DNA from: an uncultured delta proteobacterium
GTDB lineage: Bacteria > Desulfobacterota > RBG-13-43-22
Direction: 5' to 3'
Length of the DNA: 64,000 nt
Assembly (NCBI GenBank): GCA_963716045.1
Contig: CAVQSS010000025.1
Span: forward strand, 102,304-166,303
Positions 8,404 through 54,395 of the stretch are shown here, piece after piece. A program made the translations under genes and the position numbers. The number at the start of each line of letters is the position of its first letter. Position 1 is the first letter of the stretch. The notes under the pieces were generated by a model, which worked only from the letters and a program-made list of their open reading frames with translations, did no database searches and was not told the origin of the DNA.

Positions 8404-9240
8404 TTAAAGTTCCATCAACTGCCCGCCGGTCACATTGACGGCCTGGCCGGTCATATAGGAGGATTCTTGGGAGGCCAGAAAGGCGACCAGATTGGCCACC
8501 TCCTCCGGCGACCCGATACGGCGCAGGGGGATGGTCTGACACATGGCTTGTTCCCGCTCCTCGCTGGTACAGGAATAGAATTGCGCTTCCAGGCCGAATC
8601 GCCATTTTTCCAGATCGGTCATTACCTGGCCGGGACAGATGGCGTTCACCCGGATATTCATACCGGCCAATTCCTGGGCCATGACTTTGGTAAGCATGAT
8701 CAACCCGGCCTTGGCCACGGCGTAGGCCCCGTTGAACAAGGGTGGGACCTTGCCGGCTCGGGAAGCGGTGTTGATGATGCTTCCCCCGTGATTCATCATC
8801 AAAGGGAGTACCGCCCGAGTCACCCGGAAGACGCTGTGCAGATTGACGTCAATGGTCTTCAGCCAATCGGCTTCGTTATAGGTATGAAACAAATTGGGGA
8901 CGCCGAAGGAGGCCCCGGCATTGTTGGCCAGCACATCAACGTGGCTGAACCGCTCTTCGATTTTTCCCATCATCCGTTGGATGGATTCATTGGCGGTCAC
9001 ATCCACTTCTACCCCCAGGGCCGCCACCCCGTATTCGTTTGCCACTTTTTGGACGAGCCCTTCCAGTTCTTCCCTGGTCCCGGTCTTAACCGGTCCGTTG
9101 ACCGCCCCTTCTCTACCCAGATCGGCCAGGATAATATTCATCCCGGAGGCAGCCAGTTTCCGGCCAATGGCATAACCGATTCCGGTCTCCTTTCCCGCTC
9201 CGGTCACCAGGGCCGTCCTGCCTTTTAAGTCGCTATACAT
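8404..9240 (-). CDS. SDR-family oxidoreductase
   Basis: TGAGKETGIGYAIGRKL (Rossmann motif) ... NNAG ... YAVAKAG (YxxxK). Confidence 0.85.
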   Translation of the reverse strand: MYSDLKGRTALVTGAGKETGIGYAIGRKLAASGMNIILADLGREGAVNGPVKTGTREELEGLVQKVANEYGVAALGVEVDVTANESIQRMMGKIEERFSHVDVLANNAGASFGVPNLFHTYNEADWLKTIDVNLHSVFRVTRAVLPLMMNHGGSIINTASRAGKVPPLFNGAYAVAKAGLIMLTKVMAQELAGMNIRVNAICPGQVMTDLEKWRFGLEAQFYSCTSEEREQAMCQTIPLRRIGSPEEVANLVAFLASQESSYMTGQAVNVTGGQLMEL

Positions 9241-9378
9241 GCCTTCCTCCCTTTTCGATCACCGAAACAACTTCTCTTTCCCTTTTCTTAAATCAAAAAA
9301 GCCTATCGGTGTCAACGAAAGAAAATGCCGCTGCGCGTATAATACAAATGATCTCAAAACAGCATCAACATCATAGAA

Positions 9379-9463
9379 CGTCATTCCCGCAGCGCTTCTG
9401 TGCGGGAATCCCGGCTTTTCTCTGGGAACATTGGATCCCCGATAAAGCCATTCGGGGATGACG
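9379..9463 (+). repeat. REP-like double-hairpin intergenic element (family A)
   Basis: cgtcattcccgcagcgcttctgtgcgggaatcc...ggatccccgataaagccattcggggatgacg. Confidence 0.8.
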
Positions 9464-9592
9464 AGAAGACCACCTGTAAATACCATTAGGGGACTGATGA
9501 CAAATATTATTGCTATTTATGCTACGGCGGTTCATTGCATTCCATTTCCCCTTTGTGCTACACTAATCCAATTTTGCAAGGAGCGGAACCTT

Positions 9593-11431
9593 ATGAACCT
9601 GCGCATCGCCCTGGCCCAGATCAACACTACCGTGGGGGACCTTCCGGGAAATCGCCGAAAGATCGAAGAGCAATTGGAACTGGCCCGAAGGCAGGAAGTG
9701 GACCTGGTGGCCTTTCCGGAAATGGCCGTCACCGGGTACCCGCCCGAGGACCTGCTCCTGAAACCGGATTTCGTTTATGCCGCCAAGCAGAGCCTCCTGG
9801 ACCTCCTTCCCCAAACGAAAGGGTTGGTGGCCGTTATCGGCGGCCTCTGGGTGGAAGACGATCTCTATAACAGCGCCCTGGTCGTGGCCGACGGTCAGAT
9901 CCAGGCGGTCTATCATAAACAATTGCTTCCCAATTACGGGGTCTTTGATGAAAACCGCTACTTTAAGGTGGGGCAAACCAATACCGTGTTTCGACTGGGC
10001 GAGGCCTGCTTCGGGGTCAGCGTTTGCGAAGACCTCTGGTACCCGGACGGCCCGGCCCAGGAACAGGCCGGTTCAGGCGGGGCCCAACTGCTGATCAACA
10101 TCTCCTCCTCTCCCTTCTACCTGGGCAAGGGGGGCGATCGGGAGCGGATGCTGGCCACCCGGGCGGCGGACAATCGATCCTATCTGGCCTATTGCAACCT
10201 GGTGGGCGGCCAGGATGAACTGGTCTTCGACGGGCAGAGCCTGATTTTAGGCCCCCAGGGGGAACTCCTGGCCCGGGCCTCCCAATTTGAAGAAGATTTT
10301 TTAGTAGCCGACCTGGATCTGACCGAAGTCTTTCGCTGGCGGCTTTTTGACCCGCGACGGCGAAAGCAACCTCGAGAGCCTAGCGGCCGCCTGCGGGAGA
10401 TCGTTATTCCGCCCTTCCCTCCGGCATCCAAAACGGTCCCGGCCGTTCCTAAAAAGCAAGTCCCTCTGACCCGTTCCGCCGAAGGATACCGGGCCCTCGT
10501 CTTAGGAACCGGAGACTACGTGCGCAAGAACGGGTTTAAGGAAGTGGTCCTGGGTCTTTCCGGCGGGGTGGACAGCTCCCTGACCGCCGTCCTGGCCGCC
10601 GATGCCCTGGGCCCCGACCGCGTGCACGGCATCGCCCTGCCCACCCGTTTCTCCTCTTCCCATAGTCTGGAAGACGCCGAGCAATTGGCCCAAAATCTCG
10701 GCATTCATTTTTCCGTCATTCCCATCGACGCCCTTTTCCAAACCTACCTGGAAGTCCTGAACCCCCATTTTCAAGGGCTGCCGGAAGAGCTGACCGAGGA
10801 AAACCTGCAGCCTCGAATCCGGGGAACGATCCTGATGGCCCTTTCCAATAAATTCGGCTGGCTGGTGCTGACTACCGGAAACAAAAGTGAAACCGGCGTG
10901 GGGTATTCTACCCTTTACGGAGATACGGCCGGAGGGTTCGCCGTATTGAAGGATGTGCCCAAGGTCCTGGTTTATGAACTGTGCCGTTATCGGAACCAAG
11001 TCGCCGGGAAAGAACTTCTTCCCCGTCGGGTCCTGGAAAAACCTCCTTCCGCCGAGCTTCGCCCGGACCAGAAGGATTCCGATTCCCTGCCCGAATACGA
11101 CCTGCTGGATCCCATTCTTCAGGCCTATGTAGAAGAAAGCTGCTCAATGGAGGAAATGATCCATAGAGGATTTGATCAGGAAATGGTGGAAAAGGTGATC
11201 CGCCTGGTGGACCGCAACGAATACAAACGCCGCCAAAGCCCGCCGGGCATCAAAATAACCACCCGGGCCTTCGGCAAGGACTGGCGGCTGCCGATTACGA
11301 ATCGCTATCAGAGGGTAGCTAAGCCGCCGTTCTTCAAGCCTTCCCCCCAAAAACTCAAATCCTTTTTCCCCGGTTCGGAAACCGATTTGGATTTAGGAGG
11401 CGCTTGGAGACTTTCTTCCATGACCTTGTGA
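9593..11431 (+). CDS. nadE: Glutamine-dependent NAD+ synthetase (CN-hydrolase + NAD synthase domains)
   Basis: ATG 9593 after AAGGAG; MNLRIALAQINTTVGDL...; C-terminal SGGVDSS P-loop-like motif and ...GKDWRLPITNRY. Its 3' tail overlaps the convergent phoA-like gene by 124 nt. Confidence 0.85.
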   Translation: MNLRIALAQINTTVGDLPGNRRKIEEQLELARRQEVDLVAFPEMAVTGYPPEDLLLKPDFVYAAKQSLLDLLPQTKGLVAVIGGLWVEDDLYNSALVVADGQIQAVYHKQLLPNYGVFDENRYFKVGQTNTVFRLGEACFGVSVCEDLWYPDGPAQEQAGSGGAQLLINISSSPFYLGKGGDRERMLATRAADNRSYLAYCNLVGGQDELVFDGQSLILGPQGELLARASQFEEDFLVADLDLTEVFRWRLFDPRRRKQPREPSGRLREIVIPPFPPASKTVPAVPKKQVPLTRSAEGYRALVLGTGDYVRKNGFKEVVLGLSGGVDSSLTAVLAADALGPDRVHGIALPTRFSSSHSLEDAEQLAQNLGIHFSVIPIDALFQTYLEVLNPHFQGLPEELTEENLQPRIRGTILMALSNKFGWLVLTTGNKSETGVGYSTLYGDTAGGFAVLKDVPKVLVYELCRYRNQVAGKELLPRRVLEKPPSAELRPDQKDSDSLPEYDLLDPILQAYVEESCSMEEMIHRGFDQEMVEKVIRLVDRNEYKRRQSPPGIKITTRAFGKDWRLPITNRYQRVAKPPFFKPSPQKLKSFFPGSETDLDLGGAWRLSSMTL

Positions 11432-22155: not shown

Positions 22156-22304
22156 AAAGGGTGAAAATCGTAAACATTGCTGGTTCAGCAATGGAATCAA
22201 AGGGCGGATAGGGAGGAGGCGCGAAAAAAAGATCGCCAACTTGCTTCTTATCCGCCTTTGGTCTTAGATATAAATGGTCTCAAAGTAGATGCAACACCTT
22301 AGAG

Positions 22305-22389
22305 CGTCATTCCCGCAGCGCTTCTGAGCGGGAATCCAGTCTTTTCTTAAGGGACATTGGATCCCCGATAAAGGCCTTCGGGGATGACG
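22305..22389 (+). repeat. REP-like double-hairpin element (family A)
   Basis: cgtcattcccgcagcgcttctgagcgggaatcc...ggatccccgataaaggccttcggggatgacg; spurious ORF 22264..22452. Confidence 0.8.
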
Positions 22390-22437: not shown

Positions 22438-23484
22438 ATGCAAAGCGATCACCCTTTTGATTTCTTATTTCAATGGCATTTGACGGAAAAATGCAATCTG
22501 CATTGTCTCCACTGTTATCAGGAGAAAGGGGATTTGGAGGAACTGACTTTTCCTGAGATCAAAGAAACCCTGAACGAGATATCTCTTATGCTGGAAGACT
22601 GGTCGAAGATCTATGGCCTGGCTTTCCAGACCAGCATCAATGTTACCGGAGGAGAACCTTTCTTACGACCCGATCTGTTTCCCATTCTTGAAGAAATGCG
22701 CCAACAGGGGTTTGACCTTTATCTCCTTTCCAACGGGACCCTCCTGGACCGGGAAAAAGCTCGCCGTCTGGGCCGCCTGCCGATACGGGGAGCACAGATC
22801 AGCCTGGAAGGGTTGGAAAAAACCCATGAGGCCCTGCGGGGAAAAGGCAGTTTTGCCGCGGCGCTGAAAGGGATCGGTTATCTGATTGAGGCCGGGGTCC
22901 CGGTCACCATCAATACGACTTTATCCGATCTCAACCGGGAGCAATTCTTAGAAATGATCCCCTTGGCCCAGGCCCTGGGGGCTCAGCGACTGGGGTTCTC
23001 CCGATTGATTCCCGCCGGTCAGGGGGCACTGCTTTCTGCCAATCTACTAAATCCGCATCAAGTCCGGGACCTATATCAGGATATCCTTTCCCTCATTCCC
23101 GAGGGATTGGAACTGGTGAGCGGGGACCCGCTTTTCCGGCAAATGGAGTCGGACCCCGTAAAGGATGACCTGGGAATCATCCCCCTGGGAGGATGCGCGG
23201 CGGGGGTGTCCGGTTTGACTTTGATGGCCGACGGCACGGTCACTCCCTGCCGCCGCTTGCCGGTCCCCCTCGGGAATGTGCGCCGGGACTCCCTGCGTGA
23301 AATTTGGAGCGGTTCCCCGGTGCTGGATAAGCTGCGGGACAAAAACAGCTACCAGGGAAAATGCGGCCGCTGCCGCCGATGGGCCGCCTGCCGGGGATGC
23401 CGGGCCATGGCCTATGCCTTTTCCCGGGCCGGGGGCCGTCCCCATCTCTTGGGAGAAGACCCGCAATGTTTTTTGGAGCCCTAA
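22438..23484 (+). CDS. Radical SAM/SPASM-domain protein (RiPP-maturase-like)
   Basis: CNLHCLHC (Cx3Cx2C) 18 aa from the N-terminus; C-terminal Cys-rich SPASM (GGCAAGVSG...CRRLP...GKCGRCRRWAACRGC); paralogous to 28285..29793. Confidence 0.8.
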   Translation: MQSDHPFDFLFQWHLTEKCNLHCLHCYQEKGDLEELTFPEIKETLNEISLMLEDWSKIYGLAFQTSINVTGGEPFLRPDLFPILEEMRQQGFDLYLLSNGTLLDREKARRLGRLPIRGAQISLEGLEKTHEALRGKGSFAAALKGIGYLIEAGVPVTINTTLSDLNREQFLEMIPLAQALGAQRLGFSRLIPAGQGALLSANLLNPHQVRDLYQDILSLIPEGLELVSGDPLFRQMESDPVKDDLGIIPLGGCAAGVSGLTLMADGTVTPCRRLPVPLGNVRRDSLREIWSGSPVLDKLRDKNSYQGKCGRCRRWAACRGCRAMAYAFSRAGGRPHLLGEDPQCFLEP

Positions 23485-24340: not shown

Positions 24341-26430
24341 ATGAACTTCTCCAACAATCCTAACCCCCCGGGAAACGCTTTCCCCCTTGGAGCCACGGTC
24401 TATCCGGAGGGCGTCAATTTCAGCGTCTATTCCAAAAACGCCGCCGGAGTGGAACTGCTCCTGTTCGACCGGGCCGATGACGCCCGCCCGGCCCGGGTCA
24501 TTCCTCTGGAAGCAAACAAAAACCGGACCTATTTTTACTGGCACGTTTTCGTCCCCGGCCTGCAATGCGGACAGATCTACGGCTTCCGCGTATCCGGCCC
24601 GTATGAACCGGAAAAAGGGCTGCGTTTTGACGGCCAGAAGGTTCTGCTGGATCCCTACGGCAAGGCCTTGGCGACGCCGCCTAATTACAGCCGTCTCGCC
24701 GCCGGCCTTCCGGGGGACAACACGGCCACGGCCATGAAAAGTGTGGTGGCGGATTTGAGCCTTTACGATTGGGAAGGGGACGCCCCGCTCCGGCGCCCTT
24801 TTTCCAATACCATTATTTATGAACTGCACGTCCGCGGGTTCACCCGCCATCCCAGTTCGGGTGTGCCGGCGGATAAGCGGGGCACCTATGTGGGGTTGAT
24901 CGAGAAGATCCCCTACCTGCGGGAATTAGGAATAACCGCCGTGGAACTCCTGCCGGTCTTTCAATTCGATGAACAGGACGCGCCCCCCGACTTCAAGAAC
25001 TACTGGGGCTACAGCCCGATCAGCTTCTTCGCCCCTCACGGGGGTTACTGTTCCTGCCGGGACCCTCTCGGTCCGCTGGATGAATTCCGGGATATGGTCA
25101 AGGCCCTGCACCGATCCGGAATCGAGGTGATCCTGGACGTAGTCTTTAACCACACCACTGAAGGGCACCAATACGGTCCGACGCTTTGCTACCGGGGTTT
25201 TGAAAACCGGGCCTACTACATCCTGGAAGCCGCCACCGCTGAGTACGCCAACTATTCGGGTTGCGGCAACACCCTCAATTCCGGCAACGCCATCGTCCGG
25301 CGGATGATCATCGACAGTCTGCACCACTGGGTCAAGGAGATGCACGTGGACGGCTTCCGTTTTGATCTGGCCGCCATTCTCTCCCGGGATGAAACCGGCC
25401 AACCCCTGGCCAATCCCCCGGTCCTCTGGGATATCGAATCCGACCCGGTCCTGGCCGGCACCAAGCTGATTGCCGAGGCCTGGGACGCGGCCGGGCTTTA
25501 CCAGGTGGGCAGCTTTGTCGGGGAAAGCTGGAAGGAATGGAACGGCAAATTCCGGGATGATGTGCGGGGCTTTATCAAAGGCGACCGCGGCGCCGTTTCC
25601 GGAGTGGCCTCCCGGCTGCTGGGCAGCCCGGACCTTTACGGCGGGCAGGAACGCGAGCCGGAACAAAGCATCAATTTCATTACCTGCCACGACGGTTTCA
25701 CCCTGAATGACCTGGTCTCCTACAACAGCAAACACAACGAGGCCAACGGCGAGAAGAACCGCGACGGGACCGACGACAACCTGAGTTGGAACTGCGGGGT
25801 GGAAGGTCCCGCGGACAACCCGGAAATTGAAAGGCTCCGCAACCGCCAGGTAAAGAACTTTCTGACCGTCACCTTTCTGGCCCTGGGGGCCCCCATGCTC
25901 CTGATGGGCGACGAGGTCCGCCGGACCCAGGGGGAAACAACAACGCCTACTGCCAGGACAACGAAATCAGTTGGTTCGATTGGGACCGGCTGGCTGAACA
26001 CGGCGATATACACCGTTTCGTAAAAAACCTGATCGCGGCCCGCCTGCGCACGAACACCTTCACCCCCAGCCAGGAGTTGACCCTGAGCCAGATCCTCCGG
26101 CAGGCCCGTATTCAGTGGCACGGGGTCAAGCTCAGCCGGCCCGATTGGAGTCCGGATTCCCACAGCCTGGCCTTCAGCGCCTGGAGCCGCCGAGGCCGGC
26201 TCTTGACCCACATTATGCTGAACGCCTACTGGGAGCCCCTGTCCTTTGAACTGCCGCCCGTTCAAAACCTGCAGGGCAAGGCCTGGCACCGGTGGATCGA
26301 CACCGCGCTGGACTCCCCCGAGGACATCGGCACCTGGGCCCACGCCCCGGCCGTTCCCGGATCGACCTACCCGGTGCAGCCCCGATCGATTGTGGTGCTG
26401 ATGGAACGGATTGCAAAAGATTCATCCTGA
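24341..26430 (+). CDS. glgX: Glycogen debranching enzyme GlgX, interrupted by a 1-nt homopolymer indel near 25928-25936
   Basis: 24341..26023 encodes the isoamylase N and catalytic domains up to MLLMGDEVRRTQG; 26077..26430 continues in the +1 frame. The restored junction reads GGNNNAYCQDNEISWFDWDRL..., which is a conserved GlgX motif. Confidence 0.75.
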
Positions 26431-26482: not shown

Positions 26483-26515
26483 CGTCATTCCCGCAGTGCT
26501 TTTGGGCGGGAATCC
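26483..26515 (+). repeat. REP-like element, first hairpin only (family A)
   Basis: cgtcattcccgcagtgcttttgggcgggaatcc directly upstream of the GIY-YIG gene. Confidence 0.65.
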
Positions 26516-26529
26516 ATCAAGGATTTTGC

Positions 26530-26823
26530 GTGCCTAAACAGTTCTATGTTTATATCCTGGCCAGCAAACGAAACGGAACGCTCTACATTGGTGTAACCTC
26601 GAATCTGGTTCAGAGGACTTGGCAGCATAAGGAAGGTCAGGTAGAAGGTTTTTCAAAAAAATATGGCGTAAAGAATCTTGTTTACTTTGAAGTGCATGAG
26701 ACGGCAGAAAGCGCTTTGACTCGAGAGAAACAGATGAAGAAATGGGAAAGGGCGTGGAAAATCAAGTTGATCGAACGAAATAATCCTGAATGGCGAGACT
26801 TAACCGATATGATCGTCTCCTAG
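26530..26823 (+). CDS. Small GIY-YIG nuclease-domain protein
   Basis: GTG 26530: (M)PKQFYVYILASKRNGTLYIGVTSNLVQRTWQHKEG...; ~42% GC; flanked by REP-like elements. The upstream part of the longer ORF is REP-encoded. Confidence 0.65.
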   Translation: MPKQFYVYILASKRNGTLYIGVTSNLVQRTWQHKEGQVEGFSKKYGVKNLVYFEVHETAESALTREKQMKKWERAWKIKLIERNNPEWRDLTDMIVS

Positions 26824-26826
26824 CCT

Positions 26827-26852
26827 GGATTCCCGCCTCCGCGGGAATGACG
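26827..26852 (-). repeat. REP-like element, first hairpin only, reverse orientation
   Basis: ggattcccgcctccgcgggaatgacg. Confidence 0.6.
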
Positions 26853-26901
26853 TCCAAATATCTTTGATAAATAGTCCCAAAATAGGTACAACATCATAAA
26901 T

Positions 26902-26986
26902 CGTCATTCCCGCAGCGCTTCTGGGCGGGAATCCATGTTTTTCTTAAGAAATACTGGATCCCCGATAAAAACCTTCGGGGATGACG
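26902..26986 (+). repeat. REP-like double-hairpin element (family A)
   Basis: cgtcattcccgcagcgcttctgggcgggaatcc...ggatccccgataaaaaccttcggggatgacg. Confidence 0.8.
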
Positions 26987-30074: not shown

Positions 30075-30158
30075 CGTCATTCCCGAGCGCTTCGCCTGCT
30101 GTCATCCTGAGCCCTCGGCCTACATGTCTGGATCCCGAGCGAAGCATCGGGGATGACG
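30075..30158 (+). repeat. REP-like element, divergent variant
   Basis: cgtcattcccgagcgcttcgcctgctgtcatcctgagccc...ggatcccgagcgaagcatcggggatgacg. Confidence 0.6.
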
Positions 30159-30829: not shown

Positions 30830-30921
30830 GGGGATCCCATAATCCCGCAGCGCTTCTGAGCGGGAATCCAGGCTTTTCTCCGGGGACATTGGATTCCCCA
30901 TAAAGACCTTCGAGGATGACG
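30830..30921 (+). repeat. REP-like double-hairpin element (family A variant)
   Basis: ...cccgcagcgcttctgagcgggaatcc...ggattccccataaagaccttcgaggatgacg. Confidence 0.75.
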
Positions 30922-33120: not shown

Positions 33121-33214
33121 GGGCGGGGATAAACGGCTCGACTGAGCTCGCCGAAGCCCCGCCCCTACGCGAGTCCCCCGTTTGGAGAGGTAGGGGCGGG
33201 GTTTATCCCCGCCC
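33121..33214. repeat. MITE-like element family B (GGGCGGGGATAAAC ... GTTTATCCCCGCCC inverted termini)
   Basis: gggcggggataaacggctcgactgagctcgccgaagccccgcccctac...gtaggggcggggtttatccccgccc. Confidence 0.7.
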
Positions 33215-39426: not shown

Positions 39427-39517
39427 CGTCATACCGGACTCGATCCGGTATCCAGGATTTTTCCAGAGCTTATCCGAGGCTGGATTCCGGATCGCGCTTC
39501 GCTTGTCCGGAATGACG
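39427..39517 (+). repeat. REP-like element, divergent variant
   Basis: cgtcataccggactcgatccggtatcc...ggattccggatcgcgcttcgcttgtccggaatgacg. Confidence 0.55.
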
Positions 39518-42163: not shown

Positions 42164-42336
42164 GTAGGGGCGGGGTTCATCCCCGCCCGCAGCTTGGGAA
42201 TTGAGGATTCAGCTTTTTCCAGGAGCGTGTAATTTGCCCGGATGGCTGCGGGAGGGGATTAACGGCTCGACTGAGCCTTTCGGTAAACTCAAGGCCTTGA
42301 GCTTGTCGAAGGGCTCGCCGAAGTCCCCGCCCCTAC
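42164..42336. repeat. MITE-like element family B (GTAGGGGCGGGG ... CCCCGCCCCTAC termini)
   Basis: gtaggggcggggttcatccccgccc...gggaggggattaacggctcgactgagcctttcggtaaactcaaggccttgagcttgtcgaagggctcgccgaagtccccgcccctac. Confidence 0.7.
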
Positions 42337-53806: not shown

Positions 53807-53892
53807 TCGTCATCCCCGAAGGCCTTTATCGGGGATCCAATGTTTCTTAAAGAAATCCTGGATTCCCGCCCAGAAGCGCTGCGGGAATGACG
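53807..53892 (-). repeat. REP-like double-hairpin element (family A), reverse orientation
   Basis: cgtcatccccgaaggcctttatcggggatcc...ggattcccgcccagaagcgctgcgggaatgacg. Confidence 0.8.
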
Positions 53893-53894
53893 CT

Positions 53895-54395
53895 TTAGTT
53901 TTTTTCAAGTACCAGGTCCGCCATCAGCGGACTGTCCGCGGAAAGGGCCGCGCAACTGTTATAAAGCCTGGGATTAGCCCGGACCATCTCGGCAAAAAAA
54001 TCTTTCTCTCCGGACCGGTCTTTAGGGGCCAGCGCCAGGACGTCCCTGGTAAAGGACAAGATGACGCCGCCGCAGCATTCCTCCACCAGCAGGGCTAACG
54101 TTTCCATCAAAGGACCCTTGGCGATAAGCCCCCGGAGGATCTTCTTGATCCCCGGACCGACCCGGGCGCCGAGCACTTGCCGAAGGTCCTGGTCGATGTC
54201 CGTCCGGTCCCCTTCACCGGACCGTCTGATTTGCCCCCTCACGCCGACAATTTCCAGGTCAGGAGACTTAACCAGGATCATTGCCCAGGCCTCCATCAGC
54301 GTGTCCTGGACCCGGCAGGTGGATCGGGTCGTCTGATCATCCACCCTTTCCACGGTGGTGCAACGATTTCTGGTAAAACAAAGGATGTCCGCCAT
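53895..54395 (-). CDS. Hypothetical protein (DUF2889-like, tentative)
   Basis: 166 aa; Cys pattern C..C....C...ECCGG; paralogous to the N-terminus of 52634..53770. Confidence 0.5.
   Translation of the reverse strand: MADILCFTRNRCTTVERVDDQTTRSTCRVQDTLMEAWAMILVKSPDLEIVGVRGQIRRSGEGDRTDIDQDLRQVLGARVGPGIKKILRGLIAKGPLMETLALLVEECCGGVILSFTRDVLALAPKDRSGEKDFFAEMVRANPRLYNSCAALSADSPLMADLVLEKN

Follow-up and report, generated by a model that had tools for sequence, protein, structure and literature searches.

Results

The locus

The subject of this report is a small gene and the repeats around it, which occupy positions 26,483 to 26,986 of a 64-kb stretch of DNA (hereafter the window) from contig CAVQSS010000025.1 of an uncultured delta proteobacterium. 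The gene encodes a 97-aa protein whose only domain is GIY-YIG (Pfam PF01541; E=2.7e-17, residues 5-78), and its guanine-plus-cytosine (GC) content, 0.43-0.45, is below the 0.60-0.64 of the genes on both sides. Two hairpins in inverted orientation bracket it, A lying 13 nt upstream and B 2 nt downstream, and two more hairpins, C and D, follow as an inverted doublet (Table 1). The initial annotation, a reading of the letters by a model, had described a small low-GC GIY-YIG gene among repeats, and this description proved correct. We propose that the gene very probably encodes a member of the Ssn family of site-specific single-stranded DNA (ssDNA) endonucleases, as judged from its sequence, and that the repeats are its cognate NTS/SRM elements; we therefore refer to it as ssn.

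The pairing of Ssn nucleases with hairpins of the Neisseria Transformation Sequence (NTS) was described by Chenal et al. (Nat Commun, March 2025; PMC11893778). The NTS is a 28-nt sequence, CGTCATTCCCGCGMAVGCGGGAATCYRG, that includes the dRS3 core ATTCCC-N8-GGGAAT, and of all N. meningitidis proteins only the homologs of NMV_0044 are NTS-flanked across bacteria; a degenerate motif, the SRM string, occurs at least once at 71% of the homologs and on both sides at 42% (PMC11893778). SsnA (94 aa) binds the NTS only in its ssDNA form and cleaves a few nucleotides upstream of it, and the mutants Y6A, Y17A and E64A keep binding and lose cleavage; the reverse strand, double-stranded DNA (dsDNA) and RNA are not substrates (PMC11893778). 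The identity of the loop is dispensable, and a changed stem sequence with the structure kept abolishes activity (PMC11893778). Three more homologs, those of N. elongata, N. wadsworthii and Wolbachia, cleave their own hairpins, so that four have been tested in all, and in N. meningitidis SsnA cuts the integration of NTS-bearing transforming DNA approximately five-fold; the family, CDD cd10448 (GIY-YIG_unchar_3), was named Ssn (PMC11893778).

The encoded protein

As a proxy for N. meningitidis SsnA (CAX49033.1) we used the N. gonorrhoeae ortholog (94 aa; L159, 1498-1782), which has Y6, Y17 and E64. Its source was a pair of 2.17-Mb N. gonorrhoeae chromosomes that PLSDB files as plasmids (NZ_CP119140.1 and NZ_CP119142.1). 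A tblastn search of 7.3 Gb that included these chromosomes matched the window protein at 66-67% identity (E=4e-32), and pairwise BLASTP against the gonococcal ortholog gave 67% identity over 85 aa (90% of the 94 aa; E=9e-44), in an alignment that pairs Y8, Y19 and E66 of the window protein with gonococcal Y6, Y17 and E64. The protein has more than 8000 homologs, and Y8, Y19 and E66 were invariant among 16 of them. With the gonococcal ortholog as proxy, the match goes beyond the homology thresholds set for Ssn proteins in PMC11893778 (E<1e-10, at least 75% coverage), and at 97 aa, with no extra DNA-binding domain in Pfam, the protein lies within the family's size limit of 150 aa. No specific model was returned for it by the NCBIfam search, and the PDB search yielded no Ssn structure, the nearest entry being 1zg2 (E=6e-4). 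A longer, 116-aa open reading frame (ORF) from 26473 was rejected: the homolog alignment speaks against it, most homologs beginning at the equivalent of 26530, and it was dropped because its frame translates the upstream hairpin A.

The flanking hairpins

Oriented NTS-type hairpins are present on both sides of ssn, which is a feature of the Ssn family. Hairpin B differs from the NTS consensus by a single substitution, in the loop, and contains the dRS3 core exactly (26829-26848, reading ATTCCCGCCTCCGCGGGAAT); A and C lie outside the dRS3 definition, with N15 instead of N8. The strict NTS consensus and the published SRM string, HGTCWYN(0-2)YYVSBRHN(0-5)WNVSBRGN(0-2)RNCYNB, each had 0 exact matches in the window, and with one substitution allowed the SRM string was matched by each of A, B, C and D. 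The exact match is missing mainly because the string permits only short loops (approximately 5 nt); it serves as a heuristic for searching, and membership in the Ssn family does not require it. The 11-nt loop of hairpin A is unusual, such a loop being found in 1 of 102 gene-flanking hairpins. Folded as ssDNA, each of the four hairpins reaches -7.7 to -9.9 kcal/mol (A -7.8, B -9.9), and the 85-bp C+D doublet forms a single long structure of -21.1 kcal/mol (z = -4.25). An Rfam search of the locus found no credible RNA family.

Both flanking hairpins are kept in the orthologous loci L001 and L003. Upstream of hairpin A, homology in these loci breaks exactly at CGTCATT, and hairpin B carries a 25-nt loop insertion in L001. 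In the related genome represented by L001 and L086 (approximately 8765-9925), an AAA_14/DUF4143 gene is located between glgX and the left hairpin, and homology to the window restarts exactly at CGTCATT. A further variant was observed in L088 (approximately 1786-1880; 90% protein identity), where the right hairpin of the gene and the left hairpin of the next doublet are fused into a symmetric palindrome, CTGGATTCCCGC-CTTC-GCGGGAATCCAG; the fusion has lost the spacer between the hairpins, which points to recombination between them.

Association and co-variation across genomes

A scan of species-representative genomes with the window protein returned 80 loci at 60-76% identity, spanning Thermodesulfobacteriota and other delta-proteobacterial metagenome-assembled genomes (MAGs), Alpha-, Beta- and Gammaproteobacteria, Chloroflexota, Planctomycetota, Nitrospirota, Omnitrophota, Rhodothermales and one candidate-phylum bacterium. 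Hairpins were scored with a detector (GTC, an 8-nt arm, a 3-45-nt loop, the complementary arm with at most 1 mismatch, CC) that is noisy at 1 mismatch, giving 21 matches in the window against 6 in the reversed-sequence control. A forward hairpin lay within 150 nt upstream of the gene at 65 of the 80 loci and a reverse hairpin downstream at 64 of 77, and correctly oriented hairpins were found on both sides of 54 of the 77 genes having sequence on both sides; the background expectation, calculated from how dense such hairpins are in the remaining 1.24 Mb of these loci, was 0.024 hairpins per flank. The median gap between the end of the upstream hairpin and the gene match was 21 nt over the 80 loci. 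Applied to these loci (500 bp), the SRM string of PMC11893778 was present on either side at 66 of 80 and on both sides at 44 of 80, which agrees with the published figures, and in a second set of 62 full-length metagenome genes hairpins occurred on both sides in 33 of 57 cases. The adjacency of gene and hairpin is strongly enriched over these loci, which span many phyla.

The hairpins also vary together with the gene that they flank. Taken over 154 gene-flanking hairpins whose loops are 4 nt long, the consensus reads Y-GTCATTCCCGC-GMAR-GCGGGAATCCAG, and the sequence further upstream is unconserved. The left and right stems were identical at 34 of 54 loci (permutation mean 11.9, maximum 20), and solo hairpins carried the flanking stem of the local gene in 65% of cases, against 14% across loci. 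Double-sided compensatory changes were found in 7 of 8 stem pairs (74 cells), and none of 500 shuffles scored as high; as the hairpins had been selected at no more than 1 stem mismatch, the percentage of paired cells is circular, whereas the compensatory substitutions are not.

Further repeat copies and neighbouring genes

Additional copies of the doublet are dispersed between the genes of the window (Table 1). The pattern ATTCCCGC-N3-20-GCGGGAAT has 6 occurrences in the window against 0 in 100 shuffles, and GTCATTCCCGC, at no more than 1 mismatch, has 9 against 1.7 expected. The doublet at 39427-39517, with its differing stems, suggests that the genome has a second hairpin specificity and possibly, beyond the window, a second ssn paralog. 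In three doublets an extra conserved stretch of approximately 35 nt (AAATGGTCTCAAAATAG..CAACAYCATAGA) adjoins the left hairpin on its left side (9340-9378, 22268-22304 and 26862-26901); the other copies are without this stretch, so that long and short forms of the repeat exist. Exact-protein look-ups for the genes adjoining two of the doublets (53895-54395 and 22438-23484) found no record, probably because of differences in the called starts.

Table 1. Coordinates of the ssn gene, its hairpins and the related doublets (positions in the window)
Feature	Position	Strand	Description
ssn gene	26530-26823	+	GTG start; 97 aa; single-domain GIY-YIG protein; predicted member of the Ssn family of site-specific ssDNA endonucleases
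Probable ribosome-binding site	26519-26523	+	AAGGA, 6 nt before GTG, read from sequence
Hairpin A (left, SRM/NTS-type)	26483-26517	+	CGTCATTCCCGC-AGTGCTTTTGG-GCGGGAATCCAT; 8-bp stem ATTCCCGC/GCGGGAAT; 11-nt loop
Hairpin B (right, near-canonical NTS, inverted)	26825-26852	-	CGTCATTCCCGC-GGAG-GCGGGAATCCAG; full sequence CGTCATTCCCGCGGAGGCGGGAATCCAG
Hairpin C	26902-26936	+	95% identical to A
Hairpin D (inverted)	26954-26986	-	CGTCATCCCCGA-9 nt-TCGGGGATCCAG; stem ATCCCCGA/TCGGGGAT
Solo inverted doublet C+D (REPIN/MITE-like)	26902-26986	+	85 bp; 17-nt spacer between C and D
Second doublet copy	9379-9463	+	Same as C+D; intergenic
Third doublet copy	22305-22389	+	Intergenic
Fourth doublet copy	53808-53892	-	Intergenic, opposite orientation
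Doublet of same design with other stems	39427-39517	+	Stems ATACCGGA and ATTCCGGA; intergenic
Degenerate doublet copy	~30836-30921	+	Left head mutated; intergenic
Degenerate related doublet copy	30075-30158		Intergenic
MITE, miniature inverted-repeat transposable element.

Upstream of ssn lies a glgX-like gene, and downstream one for a class II fructose-bisphosphate aldolase (fba). The glgX-like gene (24341-26430) is broken near 26023-26077 into two ORFs of 560 and 117 aa; in the related contigs L084 and L086 it is an intact single gene of 696 aa, and in L085 it is also fragmented. The split in the window is probably a frameshift caused by an assembly error, or possibly the mark of a pseudogene. 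A second, unrelated palindromic repeat, GGCGGGGATAAACCCCGCCC, lies at 33194-33214 and 42168-42188 (4 occurrences counting both strands, against 0.04 expected); L084-L086 also hold several copies, and there pairs of this repeat enclose variable inserts, among them a hairpin doublet in L084. The window also holds several modules of toxin-antitoxin type (PIN, PhdYeFM, MazE and HEPN/nucleotidyltransferase matches) and an HNH endonuclease gene, none of which adjoins ssn.

Discussion

A probable nuclease and its proposed hairpin targets

The best explanation of the locus as a whole, in which we have high confidence, is that one co-evolving nuclease/target system is made up of the gene, the two inverted hairpins at its flanks and the scattered intergenic doublets. 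The membership of the protein in the Ssn family, the architecture of the locus, and the conservation of the hairpins and their co-variation with the gene were established in this analysis, and by analogy with the tested homologs the window protein would be expected to cut the window hairpins. The pairing of gene and hairpin is already known from PMC11893778, and the locus is a further example of it. The functional link between nuclease and repeats that the initial annotation had suspected from the letters is sound, but it had been published already in March 2025. Of the two roles offered there, a processing or a mobilising nuclease for the repeats, the former is supported by homology (67% identity to Neisseria SsnA, and four homologs tested in PMC11893778) and the latter is a hypothesis.

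By analogy with those four homologs, the Ssn protein would recognise the folded hairpin on ssDNA, as exposed during replication, repair, recombination or DNA uptake. Recognition would read the stem sequence, the oriented CGTCAT head at the 5' side and the C directly after the stem. Hydrolysis would then fall on the strand that carries the folded hairpin, a few nucleotides before it and just 5' of CGTCAT. As A and B point in opposite directions, A would be cleavable on the + strand and B on the - strand; the cuts would lie just left of 26483 for hairpin A and just right of 26852 for hairpin B.

Several points weigh against this explanation. One enzyme may not serve all of the hairpins in the window, since the stems of D and of the 39427 doublet differ and a changed stem abolished SsnA activity; by this analogy the window enzyme may not cut every local hairpin type. 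The loops of A, C and D are 9-11 nt long, and none of these hairpins is an exact match to the SRM string. The enzymes with demonstrated activity all come from outside the clade and phylum of the host, and the role of Ssn is known from one naturally competent Neisseria only and may not transfer to this host.

Relation to known systems

The likeness to the Ssn/NTS system of PMC11893778 extends from the protein, a single-domain GIY-YIG protein of approximately 95 aa that is 67% identical to Neisseria SsnA and keeps the catalytic Tyr/Tyr/Glu, to the target, with its oriented CGTCAT head, the stem ATTCCCGC/GCGGGAAT and the trailing CC, and to the arrangement of the gene within inverted hairpins with many intergenic copies. 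The differences lie in the host and in the design of the repeats. Neisseria are competent and host-associated, whereas the host of the window is uncultured and environmental, and its closest Ssn homologs are in Thermodesulfobacteriota MAGs. Unlike the Neisseria NTS, most of the window hairpins have 9-11-nt loops, which places them just outside the SRM string, and they occur mainly in 85-bp inverted doublets that combine two stem types. The exact dRS3 core in hairpin B is shared with the dRS3 elements and the neisserial intergenic mosaic element (NIME) arrays of Neisseria; dRS3, however, is a symmetric Neisseria 20-mer and a phage integration target, whereas the window elements are longer, of the oriented NTS type and from an unrelated phylum. 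Our literature search, in which the dRS3 literature led to PMC11893778, found no work tying GIY-YIG proteins to repetitive extragenic palindromic (REP) elements, MITEs, REPINs or YhbQ.

The locus also resembles the REP, bacterial interspersed mosaic element (BIME) and REPIN systems with their REP-associated tyrosine transposases (RAYTs), and the IS200/IS605 insertion sequences (IS), in having short extragenic hairpins that would, by homology, be recognised as ssDNA; as in REP/RAYT systems, inverted copies of its own repeats lie on either side of the nuclease gene, and inverted doublets are dispersed in the genome. RAYTs are Y1 HUH enzymes, whereas the protein here is of the hydrolytic GIY-YIG type, with no covalent intermediate and no known strand-transfer activity. 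The head of the hairpins is CGTCAT, and (C/T)GTCAT in the 154 gene-flanking hairpins, rather than the GTAG of REPs. The initial annotation had read a half, a half and a full REP around the gene. Hairpin A does correspond to the left half of the C+D doublet, but the elements are four hairpins (A, B and the C+D doublet) and, by their sequence, are NTS/SRM elements and not REPs in the RAYT sense.

With the GIY-YIG homing endonucleases, such as I-TevI and I-BmoI, the window protein shares the catalytic fold and the tie to selfish or mobile DNA. Those enzymes have a separate C-terminal DNA-binding domain, cleave dsDNA and reside in introns or phage genomes, whereas the window protein is a bare domain, and it scored 21.3 bits against the homing-type GIY-YIG model TIGR01453, the cutoff of which is 56. 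The UPF0213/YhbQ-type proteins (BH0048, PDB 1zg2) are likewise small stand-alone GIY-YIG domains; they belong to another subfamily, and their similarity to the window protein is distant (E=6e-4). To our knowledge, no association of UPF0213/YhbQ-type proteins with hairpins has been reported.

Does Ssn move its hairpins?

An extension of the nuclease/target explanation, which it does not exclude, is that hairpin-ssn-hairpin is a selfish, IS-like autonomous cassette and that the solo doublets are its MITE- or REPIN-like derivatives without the ORF, spread through ssDNA cleavage by Ssn at the hairpins. We regard this as possible but rather unlikely. The layout resembles that of RAYT genes between inverted REPs, and the likeness of NTS-ssnA-NTS to an insertion sequence, to RAYT/REP and to IS200/IS605 was remarked in PMC11893778, where domestication of a mobile element was offered as a hypothesis. 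Other genomes provide further, indirect hints. In the unrelated loci L009 and L071 the solo doublets share with the local ssn cassette the unequal left and right stems and the spacer's inner ends, and of 64 solo doublets compared with the local cassette 27 matched it in both stems and 31 in one. Near-identical ssn copies, L071 and L078, lie 124 kb apart on one chromosome (both OZ245366.1, Thermodesulfobacteriota, approximately 9700-11100), each within a BIME-like tandem array of doublets in which the solo doublets look like the cassette minus the ORF; one MAG likewise has two ssn copies (L049 and L082). The identity of 60-76% across unrelated phyla and the low GC of ssn in the window host are also in line with mobility, as is the presence of doublets in some related genomes and their absence from others; for instance, L084 and L085, two related contigs, lack the 22305-22389 doublet in the matching intergenic region.

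Against this, all relatives found, at protein identities as low as 90%, have ssn at the same place, with glgX on one side and fba on the other. A metagenome scan with the protein found only two close relatives, L087 and L088, and as both are at the same fba locus they give no evidence of recent movement of the gene. The ends of the elements are sharp, at CGTCAT...ATGACG, but no clean empty site, boundary or target-site duplication could be aligned for the doublets in three related contigs (L084-L086), in which the intergenic DNA is too diverged or carries remnants. In addition, the window cassette and the doublets do not have the same right hairpin (B in the former, D in the latter), and single-strand excision of the IS200/IS605 type is impossible because each strand of the cassette has one cleavable hairpin only. 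Our literature search found no follow-up reporting mobility or transposition of Ssn. The support for a mobilising role thus comes from other genomes, where it is suggestive, and none of it comes from the lineage of the window.

GIY-YIG hydrolysis leaves no covalent intermediate, in contrast to HUH enzymes and IS200/IS605, and rejoining would for this reason need host repair or recombination, as in homing. It is conceivable, though we would not favour it at present, that such cassettes represent a new mechanistic class, namely an ssDNA-targeting cassette driven by a GIY-YIG hydrolase instead of an HUH transposase, with hairpin-directed homing via host repair or gene conversion. If mobility were true, Ssn, by spreading its hairpins, would be the functional counterpart of RAYT with another catalytic fold, and the relations between cassette and doublets in L009 and L071 mark genomes suited to testing it.

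We also observed that the cassettes in L049 and L082 (9902-10416) and in L059 are nested in a unit of approximately 490 bp with a 17-bp terminal inverted repeat, CATAAGCGCTAACTTAA ... TTAAGTTAGCGCTTATG, flanked on both sides by similar G/C-rich sequence. This unit may be a second layer of mobile element.

Other explanations

It is very unlikely that a RAYT or another transposase elsewhere in the genome mobilises the hairpins and that ssn merely lies among them or exploits them. Our transposase search spans 64 kb of the genome, so that a distant RAYT is compatible with it, and the dRS3 of Neisseria is a known target of a phage recombinase (PMC11893778). Nevertheless, no match to Y1_Tnp (PF01797) or to any other transposase family was found with Pfam among the 135 ORFs of 100-400 aa in the six frames of the window, which bears out the initial annotation's statement that it holds no RAYT; the scan took in all of these ORFs in three batches, and with fewer than 25 families reported per batch the lists of families are complete. 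The hairpins are without the GTAG head of REPs, they follow ssn across phyla and co-vary with the flanks of the local gene, and 81% of the genomes with more than 200 SRMs have an ssn homolog (PMC11893778).

Another reading, which we hold to be highly improbable, gives the flanking hairpins a role in the expression of the gene, for instance as terminator, attenuator or autoregulatory operator, and takes the genome-wide copies to be unrelated to them. Transcriptional regulation was the first idea of the authors for NTS/SsnA (PMC11893778), and the constant spacing of hairpin and gene, with a median of approximately 20 nt on each side, would suit such a function. However, a scan of the locus found no terminator-like site, no T-run after A or B and only weak promoter-like matches; identical hairpins occur in doublets at many intergenic sites without an ssn gene, and neither RNA nor dsDNA was bound by SsnA in vitro (PMC11893778). 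Finally, that the ssn gene and abundant intergenic repeats are neighbours by mere chance, a possibility raised in the initial annotation and compatible with the single ssn copy in the window, is refuted for practical purposes by the enrichment of oriented hairpins on both sides in 54 of 77 independent loci across phyla, which was reproduced in the second data set (33 of 57) and in the published study (PMC11893778).

Implications

Given the nuclease/target explanation, the gene can be annotated as ssn, for an ssDNA endonuclease of the Ssn family, its hairpins as NTS/SRM elements and the doublets as SRM doublets. The finding adds to the Ssn family an uncultured environmental lineage and a hairpin variant with long loops and REPIN-like doublets, which is of some use for mining Ssn enzymes with new ssDNA cleavage specificities.

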